Sequence record: PV874203.1
DNA from: a phage
Length of the DNA: 64,000 nucleotides
Reading direction: 5' to 3' (one strand)
The notes below the pieces were generated by a model. It did not search any database and had not been told where the DNA came from. It saw only the letters and a list, made by a program, of their open reading frames with translations. Positions 2 to 54,893 of the stretch are shown here, one piece after another (position 1 is the first letter of the stretch; the number at the start of each line of letters is the position of its first letter). A program made the translations under genes and the position numbers.

Positions 2-3000
2 GCTAACCCATTAGCTGCCGCCGCTATCATTGCAGGTCGTGAGACAGGTCGTGCATATGCAGACCAAACCCCTGAAGAGGGAGAAGATAAGTCTATTCTA
101 GATGCAGCCTTAGTTGGTGGTGCTAACTATGCGGCTCAGAGAATCCTTCCGGGTGCTGTTGGTACAGCTGAGTCCACACTTGGACGTATTGGTCAGAACG
201 TTGCTACTAACGCAGTGGCTGGTGCTAAAGGTGGTGCTCTTGTAGGTGCTGCTGAAGCTCAGAACAAGCATGGAGATGATACAACCTTTGCTAATGTATT
301 AGAGGGTGCTATCGAAGAAGGTGCTATGGGTGCTGCATTCGGTGGTGCAGTTGGTGGTGTTCATGGTTTGATTAGCCGTCCGGATTCTGCTGTCTTCAAG
401 AACACTCCAGAGTATGCGAAGACTGATATTGCTGCTGATGATGAACTGATTCGTAGTGCTAAGAATATTGATGAATTGAAAGAAGCTTACTCTAAAGCTG
501 AAACTGCTAACGCTGCTTCCGCTCTTAATCTTCTAGATGAGAATGGATTCCGTATCACAGATGCTGTTGCTGTAGATTCTCCTGCTGCCCAGCGTATTCT
601 TAATACAGACCAAGCTCGTGCTGAGAAAGCTGCTTCTGTTCAGAAAGAACATTCTAATATTCCTGGCCTCAATCCTTTGGCTTCTCCTGCTAAAGTTCGT
701 GGTAAAGCATTCGCTGATAACGAGCACAACCAGAAGCAAGCTGTTGCTATGAAAGATGCAATGGCTGATTACACAAAGGATAACACTAAAGCTCTTACAG
801 ATGTTCTGGATAATCTTGATCGTGAGTTAGTTTCTCTCCGAGCTTCTGGTGATTTTACTGGTAGTCCGATTGATATTAAGAATCGCACACAAGCTGATCG
901 TGACTTCATTGATGCTTACAAGACTTTCTATAATGAAGCAAACCGATTCAAAGCTCGTGATGGTGAAGACTTTAATAACTTTGTAGAGAAAGCTACTGAA
1001 CTACAGAAGATGGCTGACAATGTTTCTCCAGAGATGAAACAAGCTATTGGTGGGTTGAAGAAACTGAAAGGTATGCCTGAAGGTTTTAATCCTATCCAAG
1101 ACGCCTACACTCTGAACAACACAGCTAAGTTCATGAGCAACCAAGACCGTGGTTGGACTTCCCTTACTGATGATGGCTTCCGTGAGACTTCTTCTCCTAG
1201 TCTGGTTATGAACACCCTTGGTGCTGCTAAGTATGCTCTGAATCGCTTCTCTTCTCAGCGTGCTCGCTCTCAACGTGTTAAGCAACAAGAATCTAACAGT
1301 GAAGCTATCCGCTCTCTGGCTCGTGGTGATTTGGAAGTTGCTCGTGCTAAATCCACTGCTGATGAAGCTCGTGCTAAAATGGAAGAAGAACCAGTTGTTG
1401 ATGACATTAAATTTAAGACGCAAAATGACGTAGAAACCGAACCGGTTCGGGAGCCTTCTTCTAGTACTGTGACGGAAGAAAATCTTCCTTCTTCTGCTCC
1501 TCAAGAAACTCCTCTTACAGCTCGTGATTTAGTTGCGCAAAGACGTGCTATCCGTCAGGCTGAACAGCGTCGCGCTGAAGAAGAGGCAGCAGCTGCTCAA
1601 GAAGCTCCGGTCGAACAAGCTCCACAGGCTGAACCTCTCCCTGCTCGTAATCCTTTAGAGGAACGTCGTGCGATGGAACAGCAACGTGCTCAAGAAGAGG
1701 CCACACAGGCTCCAGAACCCACCGTAGAGGAACCAACAGTTAAAGCTGAGCCATTACCTGCTCGTGCTCCTAAAGCTCCTAAGGAAGCTGTACAGGACGT
1801 TAAACCGGCAAGTGGTGTAGAACGTTTAGCTGCTATGTCTAGTGCTGCTCGTCAGGCTACTAAAGATCGTGCAGAACGTTTTGCTCGTTCTCTGTATTCC
1901 AAGGCTGCTAAGGCTAAAGCTACTGCTGAAAACTTCTTGGCTTACAAGGGTGATCCTAAGGAACTGATGCGTCGCATTCGTCAGGAAGATAATGCTATCA
2001 ACACTGAACGTCATGAAGAAATGGCTCGTAACCAGTTAGCTTCTCAGCAAGGTATTGCTACTGCTAAGAACAACACTGTACGAACTAATTTTGCTGAATG
2101 GGTTAAGGAACGTGGTCTGCCAGAAGATATTGCTACTAAGGCATTACGTGCTGAAGAGAAAGGTTTAGGTGGGAACGTGACTAACTTGGATAGTTTGAAA
2201 CGTCGTGCTGAAAGGTTGTATCAGAAGCAGCGTGAGGCTGAGTTTGATAGACTGTACCAAGAAGCTCTGGAAGAGAACAAAGCTTTCGATAAGAAGGATG
2301 CTCCTAAACTGGTTGACCAGAAGAAAGAGCTTCAGTCTGAGATTGATACTTTGATTGATTCAGAACCTTTACGTCCTGCTCAGAAAGATGCTATGCGCAG
2401 GCTGATGAATGATTATGTAGATGGGAAGTTTAAATCTTCAGAGAAGGCTGGTAGGGAAGAGGCTTTGGAAGTTGGTCAGATGAAGGATATTTGGGATGGG
2501 TTCATTAACACCTATAACAGAGAAGTGAATGCCTTCAACAAAGCTAACAAGAACTCTCAATACGAAGCTGCTGCTAAACACTTGCAGGCTCGTGAAGAAC
2601 GTCTTGCTACTCTGAGAAATAAAGCTCAGGCTCGTTCAGATGCTAAAGCTGCTGTTGAAAATGAACGTAAAACTCTAGAGGCTATTGCAGCTCAGAAGAG
2701 TGAGATTGAGAAGATGATGGAAGGTTTACCTAAACCTGTTCGTGAGGCTCAGGAATCTCGTACATTGAAACAGTTGGCTGCTCACCATGATAAGAACTCT
2801 CCAGTTCCTCCAGAGAAGTTCCGTAGTTACATTGAACGTATCCATAACGCCGAGTCAGATTACCTTGATCGTCAGCGTCGTTTAACTGATGCAGAGGAAG
2901 ATGCTCGTCAGGCTAAGTGGAATAAGATGTATGAGCAAGCGGAAGAGATGGACCGTAAATTTGATATAGACAAAAGAGTTAAACGCAGTGAAGAGCTTAA

Positions 3001-8506: not shown

Positions 8507-9253
8507 TTAGAATGGGCTATCGTTGTCGTCTTCGTAAGTAGAAGCAGGCTCTTTATCAATCGTAGGGATTGAAGGAGTAGCTTCTTTCTGTTCTGTTTCA
8601 GAAGCACGAGTAATTTCACGACCAGCCAGAGGCATGTTCTTAGCATCATTAGCTTGAGTAAGCAGGTTGCGCTGGAACGGGAACATCAATTGATAGGATG
8701 CTACGTTCTCATCGGTTTCAGCATATGGTTCGAAGAATACCAGAGGACTACGAGCTTCACCAACTGCTGCACGATATTTGGTTGGGATTGGAGAAATGGT
8801 TTTGATGGAGTTTTTAACTTCACCGGCTTTGTTAGTGTAAGAGTTAACCAGAATGTTAACAGGCTGGCCTAACAGAACATCCTTGAACCAAGACAGATCA
8901 CCTTTCAGTGCTTGAATACTTGGGTCAATCATCTTGCAGAGATCAAGAATACCAGAGTTCTTAGCTCGTGGGTTTACATCATAGCTCTTGAACTGGCAAG
9001 CCGGACGTGGTTCTAATGCCTTACCATCGGAATCTTTACCAGTAGCATCAACACCAATCAGCTCGAAAGCCAAATCCATACGGAAAGCTGGATTCTTAGG
9101 AGTTACTGCTTTGGTCTTCGGGTCAATCCAAGGGTCTCGATTGTGAACACCCAAACCTACTACACGAACGATGCGTGCTTCGTACTCACCATCAGGGATG
9201 ATGTCGTAGTTGGATTTACGGGAAGAAGTTGCGATAGTTGGAATCATAGACAT
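8507..9253 (-). CDS. Putative ssDNA-binding protein (T7 gp2.5-like)
   Basis: Acidic C-terminal tail ending in Phe (YEDDNDSPF), as in SSB tails; sits in the replication neighbourhood. Fold not verified. Confidence 0.45.
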   Translation of the reverse strand: MSMIPTIATSSRKSNYDIIPDGEYEARIVRVVGLGVHNRDPWIDPKTKAVTPKNPAFRMDLAFELIGVDATGKDSDGKALEPRPACQFKSYDVNPRAKNSGILDLCKMIDPSIQALKGDLSWFKDVLLGQPVNILVNSYTNKAGEVKNSIKTISPIPTKYRAAVGEARSPLVFFEPYAETDENVASYQLMFPFQRNLLTQANDAKNMPLAGREITRASETEQKEATPSIPTIDKEPASTYEDDNDSPF

Positions 9254-11953: not shown

Positions 11954-12315
11954 TCAACCTCAATATTATATAAAGATTTTAATGTATCTTTAACCCAAGA
12001 GATTCGTTTTTGGTTCTTATGATGTGCTCTGTTGTCCCTATCTCTGAAGTATTGATCACATCCAAAAGGATAAGTCTTGTCCAAGAATTTATCCTGAGTG
12101 AACATGTTTTTCATATCATCTATATCTAGATGTTTTGTGAAATAATAATACCTCTTATAACAACGGAAGTTGAAACATAATCCATGATCTTCGTTAAACC
12201 AAGGAGGGCACTCCTCTGTTTGAGTTATATGGTAGTATTGGAGGAGGAAGTCCTCCATCCCCCTCTCCTTGAATAAACACCTAAGTGTTCTGTAAACTAT
12301 ATTAGTTTCTTTCAT
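11950..12315 (-). CDS. Hypothetical Cys/His-rich protein
   Basis: Track ORF trimmed to its first ATG; several Cys/His residues. Confidence 0.45.
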   Translation of the reverse strand: MKETNIVYRTLRCLFKERGMEDFLLQYYHITQTEECPPWFNEDHGLCFNFRCYKRYYYFTKHLDIDDMKNMFTQDKFLDKTYPFGCDQYFRDRDNRAHHKNQKRISWVKDTLKSLYNIEVE

Positions 12316-12323
12316 CACCTACC

Positions 12324-12476
12324 TCAATGGGTATGCATCCAATTCAATCCAATCTGACAATCAGATGCCAGAGGACATTCCATGTTCAAATACTCACCAG
12401 CCTTCTTAACACAAAGCTCGGTGTGCTCTTTGAGTTTCTGTACATCGTTACGATTAGCTGAGAACTGACCCTCATC
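12324..12476 (-). CDS. DNA polymerase (family A, T7 gp5-like), exon 2: motif C (DE of HDE) and C-terminus
   Basis: Hand translation gives DEGQFSANRNDVQKL...MECPLASDCQIGLNWMHTH*, paralleling the T7 DNA polymerase C-terminus (HDE... PNWAICH) as I recall it. An in-frame stop sits immediately upstream. Confidence 0.7.
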   Translation of the reverse strand, partial: DEGQFSANRNDVQKLKEHTELCVKKAGEYLNMECPLASDCQIGLNWMHTH

Positions 12477-13083
12477 CATTTATGTTATTCCCAAATTACT
12501 TCGGGTATCGGACTATATCATAACAGCATAGCTAATTTGCTGTTGTTGGCGCTTCGAGGGTTTCCCTGTTAACCCCCTACTCCCGCAGGATAGTCTCTAC
12601 ACTTTCCACTTTCGAATCCATCTACAAGCGATTCCAAAGCTCACACCAAACCTTTCTGCAAGAGCAACACCAGTACATTCATTATTAAGCCAGAACTCTT
12701 TAGCAGCATCCTGTCTTTCTCTGTTTCTACCAGTATTTGATTCTATGGCATGTGCACTACCTTCTAAGATCTCTAGATGATCAGTGTTACAACATGCCCT
12801 ATTCTTGCATTTGTGGTTAACTTCGTAGCCGTCAGGAATGTTTCCAAACTTCTCTTCCATGACATACCTATGATACATGACCCATTTGCCATTTATCACT
12901 TTTCGAAAGTATCCATCTTTATTTAATTTGTGTGAGATAGGGATGATACATCCTGTGCTAGTTGTTTCTAGCACTAGATCTTTCTTAGCCATATCACCTC
13001 CTAATAGCTTAGCTCGGTATTGCCCTCAACTTAATGGTCGGGTTTCACCGAGTTCACCAACTTTTACATGCACAATGAAGTTT
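12477..13083 (-). mobile_element. Putative group I intron interrupting the DNA polymerase gene at motif C, carrying an HNH homing endonuclease ORF
   Basis: 607-nt insert between exon 1 ending ...VIDMH (codon CAU, so U precedes the 5' splice site) and exon 2 starting DE...; last insert nucleotide is G. Exon 1 frame runs into the insert for 9 codons then stops. Boundaries are plus or minus a few nt. Confidence 0.6.
12597..12992 (-). CDS. HNH homing endonuclease (insert-encoded)
   Basis: GYEVNHKCKNRACCNTDHLE motif (HNH_3); lies wholly inside the insert in the polymerase gene. Confidence 0.8.
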   Translation of the reverse strand: MAKKDLVLETTSTGCIIPISHKLNKDGYFRKVINGKWVMYHRYVMEEKFGNIPDGYEVNHKCKNRACCNTDHLEILEGSAHAIESNTGRNRERQDAAKEFWLNNECTGVALAERFGVSFGIACRWIRKWKV

Positions 13084-14775
13084 ATGCATATCAATTACCT
13101 TAGCACAACGAACCTTATCTCTCTCAATCCACTTGTTAAGGAACATCATAGCATATTTCATAACAACAGCACCAGCACATTGCAGGAGAGTGTTAAGTGC
13201 TTTATGAACCATAACCTTACCAGTGGCATCTCGTCTCATTGTAATCTTACGACCATCAACACCAATCAAGTACCCTTGAGCAGCTTTCTCTGTCATACGA
13301 TCAATGAGGATTGCAATACATGGGTTCTCTGCCAAGAAACGTGCTCGCATCACTGAACCTTCGTCAGCCCCACCACCTACAATTGAACCGAGCTTAGCAT
13401 CACCAGCACCATAGTTGAATGCGTAGATAAATGTCTTAGCGTTGTCACGAGTAGGAAGACCAGCAAGTTTCTGGTTGTGGGAGTGTATATCACCTTCAAG
13501 GAGAATATCACGATACATAATAGCAGAAGCTAAACCACGTTCTGCCAGAGCTTTCTTAGCTGGATTGTTTTCTTCTATTGCTTCAGCAAGCATATCCCTA
13601 CACTCTTTAATGAGGTAGTGTGCAAGCATACGCAACTCTAACCCAGAACCATCATACCCCAAGAATACTTCTTTACCAGCGGGTATGTAATATTTGTAAG
13701 CACCTACAGGTTTGTCTTTCTTCCCCGGCTTACCTTTCTCATAAATTACGTTAGTACCTTTTCGTATATAACAACCATCAGGAACAACGTTAGTAATAAC
13801 GAAAGGACGAGAGTGATCATCATCTGAGTTATAGTCAGATTCAAACAAACTGCGACACTCATGACCAAACAAACCACGGGAGGGAATATTAACCACGATA
13901 CGATGTTTGAATCGAAAAGTCGGCGTAGCGCAGCTGTTAGCTTCTGCCGAAAGTTTACCATCTTCGCGCTCCTTTGCTATAAGTCCACTAATAAGACCTA
14001 GCCTGTGAGCCGCTACAACGCGTCTCTTAAGCAAACTTCCGACACTCCCTAGCTCACCCCCTAACCCTTCTTCAAGAGTCTCCTCGAGGTTTGTAGGGGC
14101 TGTAGGCCACTTGTTTGAGGTAGCTAGTGCTATCTTAATCTCATCAAAAGTAATAGGTCTACGTCGGTTAGGATTTAAACCTAAACCAAACACATAAGCC
14201 TTCATGTAGTTCTTAGTTTTAAACCGAAAATGCTTCTCTAAGAACTTTCTAATATCAGCGTCAACCATCTCGGCTGTCTGCTTCTGTTTAGCATTACCTC
14301 GCATCCAAGCTGAATACCATGCTTGGTATGTTCCATACTTTCGCATATCTTTCTTGATTTCAAAAGTATTCCAAGGTTTCTTTGATACATTAAACTCTGG
14401 AGGAAGAAAACCCTCATCCATAAGGGCTTCTTTAACTCGGGCATCTTTCGATGGGTCAAAGGCTACGTACTCTACACAGGTGAATGCTCCACCAATGTCT
14501 TCTCTCTTAAGTCCAACCCTATCACAATAGGCTTGAGGCCACTTCTGTAAAGCTCCAGACTTCTTAAATGGCTTCATATAAGTAGAGCCATCTAATCTCA
14601 TCTTAGGTAAGAGAGGAATCAGTTCTTTGTCAATATTAACAATAATCTCTTTAAGGAGGTGAACATACCACCGAGCATTTCTTCGGTTGAAACTCACTCC
14701 GTGCTTCGCTTGCTTAGAGATTATATCAGCGACAGTCATCTCTGTCAAAAATGGGAGAGCGTCCGGGTTGCTCAC
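13084..14775 (-). CDS. DNA polymerase (family A, T7 gp5-like), exon 1: polymerase domain through motif B, no 3'-5' exonuclease domain
   Basis: Motif A GYDGSGLELRMLAHY, motif B RDNAKTFIYAFNYGAG, and ALNTLLQCAGA segment parallel T7 gp5. Track ORF ends at 13054 after reading 9 codons into the insert. Confidence 0.85.
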
Positions 14776-14791
14776 TTTATACTCCTTTAAA

Positions 14792-15214
14792 TTATTGGTA
14801 AAGTAAATCTGTAAATGCTTGGTTATCTTCTATCACATCTAACACGGTAGCTTCATAGCTGTAAGCCCTAACCGCCCCGTTAACAACTATCCGAGGAGTA
14901 GGTGGAGGTGGTGCATGGTTAGTCCTAGCTTCACGAGGTTGCTCTCGTACTAAATGAGCCACAACCCTTTGGTTAGCGACTTCTTCTCTTTCTCGGATAG
15001 CTCTCTGAATGTAAGCTAACTTCATACCCCAAGCTTCTTCAAACTCTTGAGGGTGCTTATCACTGATTACTACATACTGACGCTCAGGGATACCAGATCG
15101 AATCTCTGATAATAGCTCATGGAACAAATCCAGTTCATGTTCAGTGAGATTCATTTCAATATCATCCCACTTGAGAACTAAGAAACGGTTTTGATGTCTA
15201 GTCGGTAATGGCAT
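14792..15214 (-). CDS. Hypothetical protein
   Basis: 140-aa ORF upstream of the polymerase gene. Confidence 0.45.
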   Translation of the reverse strand: MPLPTRHQNRFLVLKWDDIEMNLTEHELDLFHELLSEIRSGIPERQYVVISDKHPQEFEEAWGMKLAYIQRAIREREEVANQRVVAHLVREQPREARTNHAPPPPTPRIVVNGAVRAYSYEATVLDVIEDNQAFTDLLYQ

Positions 15215-39586: not shown

Positions 39587-39662
39587 TGGTGCACCCTACA
39601 GGACTCGAACCTGTAACCAACGACTTAGAAGGTCGCTGCTCTGTCCATTGAGCTAAGGGTGC
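39587..39662 (-). tRNA. tRNA-Arg (anticodon UCU), 76 nt with encoded CCA
   Basis: Hand-folded cloverleaf: acceptor GCACCCT/AGGGTGC, D-arm GCTC/GAGC, anticodon stem GCGAC/GTCGT with loop CTTCTAA, T-arm ACAGG/CCTGT with loop TTCGAGT, 3' ACCA. Confidence 0.8.
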
Positions 39663-52529: not shown

Positions 52530-52736
52530 ATGTCATTAGATAAACAAATTTATGAAGCTCTAACTGGTAACAATCTTAGTGTAGAGGAAAAGAAAGCACT
52601 ATTGAATATGTTGAAAGAGCGTGACCAATGGAGGAAGTATAATAGGATTTTGTCTTTCAAGGCGTATGACTTCCAAAAGAAATTTTATGCAGCAGGATTG
52701 AAGCATCGCTTTAGGTTCTTGTGTGCGGCTAACCGT
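52530..52736 (+). CDS. Terminase large subunit (T7 gp19-like), exon 1, ending inside the Walker A motif
   Basis: GGAGG RBS, ATG; translation ends ...YDFQKKFYAAGLKHRFRFLCAANR then an in-frame TAA. Confidence 0.65.
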
Positions 52737-53558
52737 TAACTGTTATTCACCAAGATAACCAACACGAATCTGTCGCAGTATACAAAAGAGATTATCACCT
52801 AAGGCTTAGCTATGGTGGAGCGGTTTAAAAAGTGTGCTAATTGCTGGAAGGCTGTTACGAAAGTTATGCTAATCAGCAGCGAAGCTTAATGTGGGAAACC
52901 TATTAAGAACGTTCAACGACCAGAGATTATTCTCGTAGGGTAAAGTTACCCGAAACGCACACCCCAGAGTGGGATGATATGGTCTATTCTTTTCGGAAAC
53001 GTAAAGCAGGAGAAATTAAAAATATGTTTTTATATCACATCCGTCGTCCGGGTATGTCTTTAGAAGAGGGCTACATCGGAATCACGACAAACACTACAAA
53101 ACGTTTTGCTCAGCATCACAGAGACACTCGAAATAACAACCGACATAATAGGAACTGGCATCTCTATAACGCTCTTCGTAAATATGATGATATAGAGTTC
53201 GTTATCATAGAAGAAGGGGAAGATGAAGTAATTCGACAGAGAGAGTTTGAATTACGCTCGAAACCTAATATGGGTTGGAATCAAGCAGTAGGAGGTTCTC
53301 ATAATGGTGGCAACACTTGGAAAGGCAAACAACGACCTGAACACTCAGAGCTGATGAAGAAGATAGGTTTCCAGAAAGGTAATACCACTGGATCACATCA
53401 TCCAATCATGGCTGAAGGTCAAATATTTGAGAATAAACGTTTAGCGTCAGAAGCTCTTGGAATAAACCCTAAGACAATCTATAATAGATGCAAGAGAGGT
53501 GTTGATGGTTATAAATTTCTCCGGGATGACACTGTTACGGGTGCATCTGAATAAAGAG
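52737..53558 (+). mobile_element. Putative group I intron in the terminase large subunit gene, carrying a GIY-YIG homing endonuclease ORF
   Basis: About 822-nt insert splitting the P-loop: exon 1 ...AANR (last nt U) and exon 2 VGKSYSEA... give AANRVGKS (AxxxxGKS); insert ends in G. An alternative junction (52731/53550) is also rule-compatible. P1-P9 structure not verified. Confidence 0.55.
52979..53554 (+). CDS. GIY-YIG homing endonuclease (insert-encoded)
   Basis: N-terminal YHIRRPGMSLEEGYIGITTNTTKRFAQH matches the GIY-YIG core; basic C-terminal DNA-binding region. Confidence 0.75.
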   Translation: MVYSFRKRKAGEIKNMFLYHIRRPGMSLEEGYIGITTNTTKRFAQHHRDTRNNNRHNRNWHLYNALRKYDDIEFVIIEEGEDEVIRQREFELRSKPNMGWNQAVGGSHNGGNTWKGKQRPEHSELMKKIGFQKGNTTGSHHPIMAEGQIFENKRLASEALGINPKTIYNRCKRGVDGYKFLRDDTVTGASE

Positions 53559-54893
53559 GTTGGTAAATCTTACAGCGAGGCATACGAGTTTGCTTGTCAT
53601 GTCACAGGTCGCTACCCAACTTGGTGGACAGGATATAAATTTAAAAGACCTATCTTAGCATGGGCAGTTGGTATTACAGGGGATTCCACAAGGAAAGTAT
53701 TGCAAAAGGAATTGTTTGGTACACCTATCGGAAAGGATACAAATTTATTAGGGACAGGTGTCATTCCTCGTGATGCTATCGTCATTGATACGATAGAACG
53801 AGATGGTAACAAACTTCAAATCGTACAAATCAAACATCAAAATGAGAGAGGAGAATTTGACGGTTTAAGTACATTAGAATTCCGTTCAACCCAACAGGGT
53901 GAACACACATTGATGGGTGCAACAGTTGACTACATTTGGTTAGACGAAGAAGATCCATATGAGTCTATGGCTATATTCGCACAGTGCGTCACACGTACAC
54001 TCACAACTAAAGGTCTAGTTACAATTACAGCTACACCAGAGAACGGTTTAACTGAACTGGTAGATAAATTTATGAAAGGTGAAGGGGATGAGAACACAGG
54101 TTCTCTATATTTCCAGAATGCTTCTTGGTGGGATGCTCATGCAGACCTAGGTGGACACATCACTGACCAAGATATAAAAGATATGACTGAGGGTATTCCA
54201 GCGTGGCAATTAGAGATGCGTTCAAAAGGTATGCCATTGTTAGGAAGTGGTTTGATATATGATGTATCGGATGACACAATTAAATGTGAACCATTCGAAA
54301 TTCCTGATACGTGGAAACGTGTCTGTGCAATTGATATTGGTATTGATCACCCAACTGCTGCTGTTTGGACAGCTTACGATGCAAACACGGATACTATCTA
54401 TGTTTACGACTCATATAAAGAAGGTGGCTTTACTCCAGTGTATCATGCTCCAGCTATTAATGGTCGTGGTCAGTGGATTCCTGTCATCCTACCGCATGAT
54501 GCGGACAATACTGAGAAAGGTAGTGGTTCATCTGTTGCTCAATTCTATAAGAATGCAGGAGTTAACGTACAGAGTGAGACCTTCTACAACAAAATTGGAA
54601 TGGATGGTAAAAAGAACTTCTTTGTAGAACCGGGAATCACAGATATCCGAGAAAGAATGATGAGTGGACGCTTTAAAGTCTTTAACACAGCCGCTAACGC
54701 TAAGCTATTCGAAGAGAAAGCTAGATATCACCGTAAGGTTGGTAAGATTATTAAAGAACATGATGACTTAATGGATGCAATGCGTTATTCAGCGTGCTCT
54801 GTTACACATCGTGGTCGCTCTAAGCATGATGTTAGCTACGGAAGCGCTTCTTTGTATGAGGCAAACGTAAGCAGATGGAATCAGAGCTACTAA
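53559..54893 (+). CDS. Terminase large subunit (T7 gp19-like), exon 2: rest of ATPase domain and nuclease domain
   Basis: Begins VGKSYSEAYEF (completing Walker A), Walker B VDYIWLDEED. Track ORF starts at a GTG at 53499 inside the insert. Confidence 0.7.
   Translation, partial: VGKSYSEAYEFACHVTGRYPTWWTGYKFKRPILAWAVGITGDSTRKVLQKELFGTPIGKDTNLLGTGVIPRDAIVIDTIERDGNKLQIVQIKHQNERGEFDGLSTLEFRSTQQGEHTLMGATVDYIWLDEEDPYESMAIFAQCVTRTLTTKGLVTITATPENGLTELVDKFMKGEGDENTGSLYFQNASWWDAHADLGGHITDQDIKDMTEGIPAWQLEMRSKGMPLLGSGLIYDVSDDTIKCEPFEIPDTWKRVCAIDIGIDHPTAAVWTAYDANTDTIYVYDSYKEGGFTPVYHAPAINGRGQWIPVILPHDADNTEKGSGSSVAQFYKNAGVNVQSETFYNKIGMDGKKNFFVEPGITDIRERMMSGRFKVFNTAANAKLFEEKARYHRKVGKIIKEHDDLMDAMRYSACSVTHRGRSKHDVSYGSASLYEANVSRWNQSY

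Follow-up and report, generated by a model that had tools for sequence, protein, structure and literature searches.

The closest described relatives of the element reported here are the introns of phages PhiI and W31. As Bonocora and Shub (2004) are cited in PMC3428280, these are self-splicing group I introns of subgroup IA2 that lack P2, join P7.1 and P7.2 by G-U-A and carry an HNH gene in P6a, and the passages on them in the same paper place their insertion site at position 881 as numbered in E. coli Pol I (PMC3428280). The endonucleases of a second set of polymerase introns, those of SPO1, SP82, Bastille and the cyanophage Pf-WMP3, are described as nicking HNH enzymes (PMC3428280). Here we describe a 64,000-nucleotide (nt) stretch of phage DNA (sequence record PV874203.1; hereafter the window, whose coordinates are used throughout), in which the gene for a Kuravirus-type family A DNA polymerase is interrupted in motif C, after the His codon and before the Asp codon, by a 607-nt insert with an HNH gene of its own. 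The polymerase, intron and HNH genes all lie on the minus strand. From comparative sequence analysis we judge, with a probability of roughly 0.92, that the insert represents a mobile IA2 group I intron belonging to the PhiI/W31/13a/K1F family.

A preliminary description of this locus, made from its letters alone, had recognised a polymerase open reading frame (ORF) with motifs A and B that reads only nine codons past VIDMH before stopping, with the missing DE and a T7-like C-terminus encoded downstream as DEGQFS...GLNWMHTH. Both observations hold when the ORF list and an alignment to T7 DNA polymerase are consulted. The upstream ORF, in the frame as deposited (14775..13054, 573 amino acids, aa), ends ...AKVIDMH-KLHCACKSW, the last nine codons and the TGA at 13056..13054 belonging to the insert, and the downstream ORF (12479..12324, 51 aa) reads M-DEGQFSANRN...GLNWMHTH followed by a stop. 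Motif A (DGSGLELR) and motif B (RDNAKTFIYAFNYGAG) of the upstream part both align to T7 DNA polymerase, and the C-terminal His of the downstream part aligns to that of T7. Joining 14775..13084 to 12476..12324 yields a predicted product of 614 aa that matches the 614-aa polymerase of Shigella phage SGF2 (Kuravirus) end to end without a gap, which is the colinearity with an intronless homologue that the preliminary description had suggested looking for.

In a phmmer search of solved structures, the joined polymerase aligned to T7 DNA polymerase (1skr_A) with an E-value of 5e-33, residues 421-614 falling over residues 490-698. Motif A aligned in a separate short stretch, motif C as kvidmHDEgqfs over T7 ymawvHDEiqvg, and the C-terminal ...wmhtH over T7 ...waicH. 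All family A motifs (A, B and C) and the C-terminal His are placed on the sequence of the solved T7 structure and, because the junction aligns within the HDE of T7, the insert comes between the motif C His and the catalytic Asp/Glu. Confident alignment to the T7 enzyme is confined to the C-terminal ~200 aa. Pfam recognised DNA_pol_A (E 1.3e-22) over residues 361-611 only, and within the window polymerase it recognised no 3'-5' exonuclease domain; the lack of such a domain in exon 1 is accounted for by the separate encoding of exonuclease domains or subunits in the polymerases of the Kuravirus group, as reported in a 2023 paper on that group (PMC9965538).

The edges of the insert (13083..12477) are set by the uninterrupted SGF2 gene. 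With a slash marking the boundary, SGF2 DNA reads ...GATATGCAC/GATGAGGGC... and the window reads ...GATATGCAT/AAACTT...(607 nt)...ATAAATG/GATGAGGGT...; because the flanking bases differ between the window and SGF2, these edges cannot be shifted and carry no positional ambiguity. Read on the minus strand, the last exon 1 base is T (U) at 13084 and the last base of the insert is G at 12477, so that the DNA comparison confirms the junction proposed earlier, with U immediately before the 5' splice site and G ending the insert. The ligated mRNA is predicted to read ...ATATGCAT/GATGAGGG... across the junction, at a length 607 nt below the genomic one, and the joined polymerase would contain the junction-spanning peptide VIDMHDEGQFSANR. 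Joining restores motif C as VIDMH/DEGQFS, to be compared with VH/DEIQV in T7.

The frame also agrees with the earlier contention that an unspliced polymerase would lack its catalytic Asp, the stop falling nine codons into the insert and before DE. The same in-frame stop rules out removal of the insert at the protein level, as an intein or otherwise. Inteins too target conserved polymerase motifs. Here, the HNH ORF that had been noticed between the two polymerase pieces is present (12992..12597), is preceded by a Shine-Dalgarno sequence, begins with a start codon of its own, and is recognised by Pfam as HNH_3 (45.1 bits against a cut-off of 24.8, E 7.6e-12, residues 40-76); no Pfam family besides HNH_3 and zf-His_Me_endon was found in the insert.

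The RNA structure of the insert (Table 1) was built by hand for the window copy and projected onto an alignment of homologues, with P3-P6 placed in the 91 nt 5' of the ORF under the guidance of homologues and ORF-less copies. The placement given by Rfam, which puts P3-P6 in the 3' end of the HNH ORF, was rejected. The traits of a group I intron are present, namely a P3-P9 core with a P3/P7 pseudoknot, a U.G wobble in P1, a terminal G and P10, and so are all the traits that PMC3428280 gives for the PhiI/W31 type of subgroup IA2: P7.1 and P7.2 joined by GUA, absence of P2, and an ORF in the P6 region. P1 of the window intron is followed by AAAA and then directly by P3, leaving no P2. An unconstrained minimum-free-energy (MFE) fold of the RNA with the ORF deleted recovered P1, P3, P4, P5, P7.2, P8 and P9 (-69 kcal/mol, z = -3.55).

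Table 1. Coordinates of the interrupted polymerase gene, its putative intron and a tRNA gene in the window.
Feature	Coordinates	Strand	Description	Basis
DNA polymerase exon 1	13084..14775	-	564 codons, GTG start, end ...VIDMH, motifs A and B	ORF list, SGF2 colinearity, Pfam DNA_pol_A, T7 alignment
DNA polymerase exon 2	12324..12476	-	50 codons and stop, DEGQFS...GLNWMHTH; motif C Asp/Glu, C-terminal His	ORF list, SGF2 colinearity, T7 alignment
Putative group I (IA2-type) intron	12477..13083	-	607 nt, starts AAACUUCAUU..., ends ...AUAAAUG (terminal G)	SGF2 allele, Rfam RF00028 at 12489..12676, family covariation
P1	13066..13091	-	exon AUAUGCAU (13091..13084) / internal guide GUGCAUGU (13073..13066), U.G at 5' splice site	alignment count
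P10 5' strand	13074..13080	-	CUUCAUU, pairs with first 7 nt of exon 2, GAUGAGG (12476..12470)	7 base pairs; 94% of cells paired across family
P3	13055..13061	-	GUUGGUG; partner CGCCAAC at 12551..12545	100% of cells paired, 4/7 pairs compensatory
P4-P5 domain	13013..13052	-	P4 CUCGGU/ACCGAG, J4/5 GAAA, P5 CCC/GGG and small P5a extension	compensatory changes in P4 and P5; MFE fold
P6	13012..13011 / 12603..12602	-	CU / AG; U-A in 10 sequences, C-G in 8	covariation
Shine-Dalgarno of intron ORF	12997..13002	-	AGGAGG, 4 nt 5' of ATG	sequence reading
HNH homing endonuclease ORF (predicted)	12597..12992	-	131 aa, in P6 region; stop UAG 1 nt before P7	Pfam HNH_3, identity to 13a
Catalytic core 3' half	12511..12595	-	P7, P7.1, GUA linker, P7.2, P3', P8, J8/7 UAUGAUA	Rfam alignment, coordinates
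P7	within 12511..12595	-	GACUA/UAGUC, pseudoknot with P3	invariant in alignment
P7.1 and P7.2	12590..12556	-	UCC-UGCG-GGA, GUA linker, GGGGG...CCCUC	P7.1 invariant
P8	within 12511..12595	-	ACAGCA/UGCUGU	5/6 pairs covarying
P9 hairpin	12490..12505	-	CCCGAA-GUAA-UUUGGG	100% of cells paired, 4/6 pairs compensatory; MFE fold
tRNA-Arg (anticodon TCT)	39587..39662	-		Rfam tRNA 71.9 bits, ARAGORN

To assess conservation of this fold, we aligned 18 distinct sequences with the ORF cut out and 10 nt of each exon kept, using as controls the same helices with their 3' partners slid by 1-3 columns and 500 shuffles. Standard pairs fill 93.1% of cells, against 33-47% in the slid controls; 22 pairs (104 cells) have changed on both sides, against 3-10 pairs; and the covariation score is 0.286, against 0.04-0.10, with none of the 500 shuffles reaching the observed values. 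Compensatory changes occur in each of P3, P4, P5, P6, P8 and P9, while P7 and P7.1 are invariant, and in P8 both bases of one pair differ between the window (C-G) and the Kuravirus-like contig L035 (U-A). The group I core can be folded, with covariation over the 18 homologues supporting a complete IA2-type fold (P1, P10, P3-P9 and P7.1/P7.2), as the earlier interpretation demands for P3-P7. The splice-site position pairs as U-G in 17 of the 18 aligned sequences, the exception (L026) being a MAFFT misalignment. The exon position 6 nt 5' of the splice site and its partner in the guide (column pair 5/29) are A-U in the four Kuravirus-type copies and, in the other 14, G-C (13 sequences) or G-U (one). 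Because the guide base switches along with the exon base at this pair, the guide tracks the exon, and in the window it has changed to suit the Kuravirus exon.

The distribution of the insert was examined by megablast of 12200..14900 against 50,697 phage records, which identified 102 related records, all phiEco32-like coliphages of the Gordonclarkvirinae (Kuravirus and Suseptimavirus). The insert is present in 11 of them: PE006 (two records), pEC-N1203-2Af.1, FH3, 1-6af, 1-6bf, PAS59, SU7 (two) and ECBP2 (two). The remaining listed records match as two pieces with ~77% coverage and therefore lack it. Exon identity to the window is 96.6% and 97.2% for the intronless SGF2 and O18-011, and 97.7% and 94.9% for the intron-containing PE006 and FH3; because intronless relatives are as close in their exons as intron-bearing ones, presence and absence are interleaved, a sporadic pattern among close relatives that is consistent with mobility. 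At the insertion site the His codon is CAT in all five intron-containing Kuravirus-like alleles and CAC in all four intronless ones examined (L002, L045, L046 and L048). The CAT of the intron-bearing alleles is consistent with the U needed at position -1 for the U.G pair of a group I 5' splice site, and the pattern as a whole is consistent with co-conversion during homing. None of the Kuravirus-like or Vp_R1 records examined annotates a spliced polymerase, and the literature on phiEco32-like phages, so far as it could be searched, does not mention an intron, the word itself being absent from the SU7 genome paper and from the 2023 Kuravirus-group paper; this literature is limited and its silence does not prove absence.

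Every Kuravirus-type copy carries an intact HNH ORF, which in the window begins 18 nt after the 5' strand of P6. The window product is 59% identical, without a gap over the full 131 aa, to the intron endonuclease of phage 13a, and tblastn located relatives of 54-59% identity inside gene 5 of 13a, K1F, VSG32, Bas102, Kayfunavirus, Aeromonas phage PT2 and Edwardsiella phage WAG25P1. On account of this family membership and of the sporadic distribution of the intron, the ORF most likely encodes a homing endonuclease.

The same kinship extends to the intron as a whole. A blastn search in distant mode with the complete intron matched 60 phage records, comprising the 11 Kuravirus-like ones, ~45 T7-like ones and the Vibrio phages Vp_R1/SJSY21, with 65-67% DNA identity to the T7-like copies over 83-99% of the intron. 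We also scanned IMG/VR with the P7-P7.1-P7.2 signature GAGACTATCCNNNNGGAGTAGGG, obtaining 34 loci that were pooled with the loci from phage records and the window; 29 of the pooled loci lie at the boundary between the motif C His and Asp-Glu codons (H/DE). Introns at H/DE occur in 13a, K1F, VSG32, Aeromonas PT2, Edwardsiella WAG25P1, Vibrio Vp_R1 and IMG/VR contigs. The T7-like loci read ...MAWVH/intron/DEIQV... and their intron ends are clearly homologous to those of the window, and in the deposited 13a and K1F records gene 5 is annotated as a two-piece joined coding sequence (CDS) around the HNH ORF. The architecture of the window intron is therefore not a chance arrangement, since 29 loci of several phage lineages, the window included, share it at an identical codon boundary, as does Vp_R1.

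Several of these relatives merit separate mention. Two T7-like metagenomic contigs carry ORF-less introns of 225 nt at the same site (L029, 2563..2820; L032, 9330..9587), and a third carries a 419-nt copy with a decayed ORF (L021, 10998..11416); such copies may represent stages before invasion by the endonuclease gene or after its loss. L032 has, in addition, a second group I intron (8689..8917, Rfam 69.1 bits) ~400 nt 5' of its motif C intron and apparently in the same polymerase gene. In the 112-kb Vibrio phage Vp_R1 (Grimontviridae; L049, NC_070978.1), an intron of this family occupies 1575..2240 at ...IMMH/DEFQF... of the polymerase; the record annotates a truncated polymerase and an HNH gene, and exon 2 (DEFQF...NWYHTH and stop) is wholly unannotated. 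The signature also matches IA2-type cores away from the polymerase H/DE site, on contigs of 5-114 kb with other flanks (L010, L012-L014, L020, L023-L025, L027, L030, L033, L036, L039 and L042), and the core in L033 shares the extended P5 sequence of the Kuravirus type.

Taken together, the junction, the Rfam match to the 3' half of the core, the covarying fold and the H/DE homologues in T7-like phages support the group I intron interpretation put forward in the preliminary description. Some observations weigh against it. Splicing, endonuclease activity and homing are all deduced from sequence, and the tie to the experimentally tested PhiI/W31 introns is indirect, running through a secondary paper (PMC3428280) and the annotation of 13a and K1F. 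A P6a stem closing the ORF loop was sought by eye, which gave several short alternatives, none of them convincing. In the alignment count, inner P7.2 (helix 11) is just 39% paired and P5a is also weakly supported. The window copy scores 27.2 bits, under the 50-bit gathering threshold of RF00028, with P3-P6 misplaced inside the ORF. Finally, an ATG directly precedes GAT GAG in four of four Kuravirus-type copies, and the database records list three separate CDSs, SU7 even a ribosome-binding site 5' of the small one.

The Rfam result bears on one alternative in particular. The covariance-model search that had been proposed as a check was run in E-value mode and returned one match in the region, Intron_gpI at 12489..12676 (-), with an E-value of 1.3e-4: the 3' core was matched, with P7, P3', P8, J8/7 (GAUAUAGUC) and P9 convincingly aligned, and the curated threshold was missed. 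A score under threshold, together with reports that some phage introns, although spliced in vivo, fail to splice in vitro (PMC11878797), would be in line with a decayed intron whose ribozyme splices poorly or depends on a factor from host or phage, the polymerase then being a pseudogene or expressed at a very low level. However, ORF-less L032 passes the threshold at 61.2 bits, which indicates that the low score of the window copy stems from disruption of the alignment by the 396-nt ORF in P6; ORF-less L029 scores 47.9 bits and 13a 37.9 bits over its exact 601-nt intron. The insert moreover interrupts the only family A polymerase gene in 11 genome records, which represent eight phages of different names, all of them with a listed host, while the core helices are all intact, compensation is seen within the Kuravirus lineage and the guide suits the local exon. 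We accordingly hold a disabled polymerase gene to be highly unlikely.

The ATG and the three annotated CDSs would instead suit a split polymerase, in which an HNH cassette has cut the gene and the 573-aa and 51-aa products (the latter from the ATG at 12479) are translated apart and assemble without RNA splicing. Yet this AUG merely consists of the last three bases of the intron (A, U and the terminal G), and most T7-like homologues end in AAG and have no ATG; the region 5' of it is occupied by the P9 hairpin and offers no good Shine-Dalgarno sequence. Nor would a protein-only cassette need the ~210 nt of non-coding flanks that are kept as a covarying group I fold, and the 225-nt ORF-less copies at the same site carry an insert that is not explicable as an endonuclease cassette. 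On these grounds a split polymerase is very unlikely.

If the insert is the group I intron proposed here, the polymerase gene would be transcribed through it and the RNA would fold into P1-P10, the guide pairing with the 3'-terminal 8 nt of exon 1, including the U.G pair, and, through its adjacent P10 strand, with the 5'-terminal 7 nt of exon 2. Free guanosine would attack after U13084, and the freed 3'-OH of exon 1 would then attack after the terminal G (12477), giving a ligated mRNA in which motif C is whole (...VIDMH-DEGQFS...) and from which the 614-aa polymerase would be translated. RNA left unspliced would yield a polymerase that stops nine codons into the intron and has no catalytic Asp. 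The HNH protein, translated from its own Shine-Dalgarno sequence, would most likely cut or nick intronless polymerase alleles of co-infecting relatives, with repair copying the intron in.

A second putative intron lies elsewhere in the window. The terminase large-subunit gene (exons 52530..52736 and 53559..54893, by comparison with the intronless gene of PE006) is split by an 822-nt group I intron insert at 52737..53558 (+), for which the whole-window Rfam scan gave a match at 52734..53006 (+) of 74.6 bits, above the gathering threshold. The insert falls between ...AANR and VGKS..., in the Walker A loop, with U at position -1 and a terminal G, and contains a GIY-YIG ORF (53024..53554) 3' of P9. 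All 98 related phage records lack this insert, and a blastn search of the collection of 50,697 phage records gave no match to it; the relatives of its GIY-YIG protein, in three Vibrio phages, are just 33-44% identical. Bacillus phages provide precedents for group I introns in terminase genes (PMC11878797). Considering both loci, we lean towards a picture in which one mobile intron lineage would have spread by homing to the His-Asp-Glu codons of family A polymerases across unrelated phage families (the Autographiviridae, the Gordonclarkvirinae and the Vp_R1 group), with its guide matched to the Kuravirus-like exon, and in which the unrelated terminase intron would make this phage a two-intron system.

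T7-like phages are already known to carry introns of this family; their occurrence in the phiEco32-like lineage is new, and the mechanism proposed is ordinary. For annotation, the truncated 'DNA polymerase' and HNH gene of PE006, pEC-N1203-2Af.1, FH3, 1-6af/bf, PAS59, SU7, ECBP2 and Vp_R1, together in some of them with a 51-aa 'DNA polymerase-like' fragment, should be treated as one spliced gene. Several of these Kuravirus-like phages are candidate therapeutic coliphages, and the integrity of their polymerase is for that reason worth knowing. The locus adds a further documented case of one intron lineage at the same catalytic-site codons in the polymerases of distinct phage families, and this occupation of a single site, together with the co-adaptation of guide and exon, supports the idea that homing elements maintain themselves by choosing the most conserved sequences as targets. 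If our interpretation is right, the phage offers a natural two-intron system in which to study intron invasion in coliphages.

Among known systems, the free-standing gene 5.3 of the T3/phiYeO3-12 type encodes an HNH protein homologous to that of the window (~38-46% identity over the N-terminal ~100 aa) and likewise adjoins the polymerase gene, but lies outside any intron; Bonocora and Shub (2009) reportedly found its product to cut the same polymerase site as I-TslI. The introns of SPO1, SP82 and Bastille (I-HmuI, I-HmuII and I-BasI) and of Pf-WMP3 (I-PfoP3I) resemble the window intron in being HNH-bearing IA2 introns inserted at a conserved motif of family A polymerase genes in lytic phages (PMC3428280). 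They differ from it in their site, 674 in E. coli numbering, in the finger subdomain, as opposed to 881 and motif C, and in belonging to other endonuclease lineages (PMC3428280). Closest of all is the PhiI/W31/13a/K1F intron with its endonuclease I-TslI, which shares with the window intron the family A polymerase gene, the motif C His/Asp site, the absence of P2 (the WAG25P1 homologue has an extra 20-nt insert after P1), the GUA-joined P7.1 and P7.2, and an ORF in the P6 region that ends just 5' of P7. The window intron differs in residing in a phiEco32-like, Kuravirus-type phage of the Gordonclarkvirinae and not in one of the Autographiviridae, in a guide retuned to GUGCAU from the GUGCAC of the T7-like family, in P3, P8 and P9 helices that are wholly re-paired with other sequences, and in an extended P5 and a shorter P7.2.

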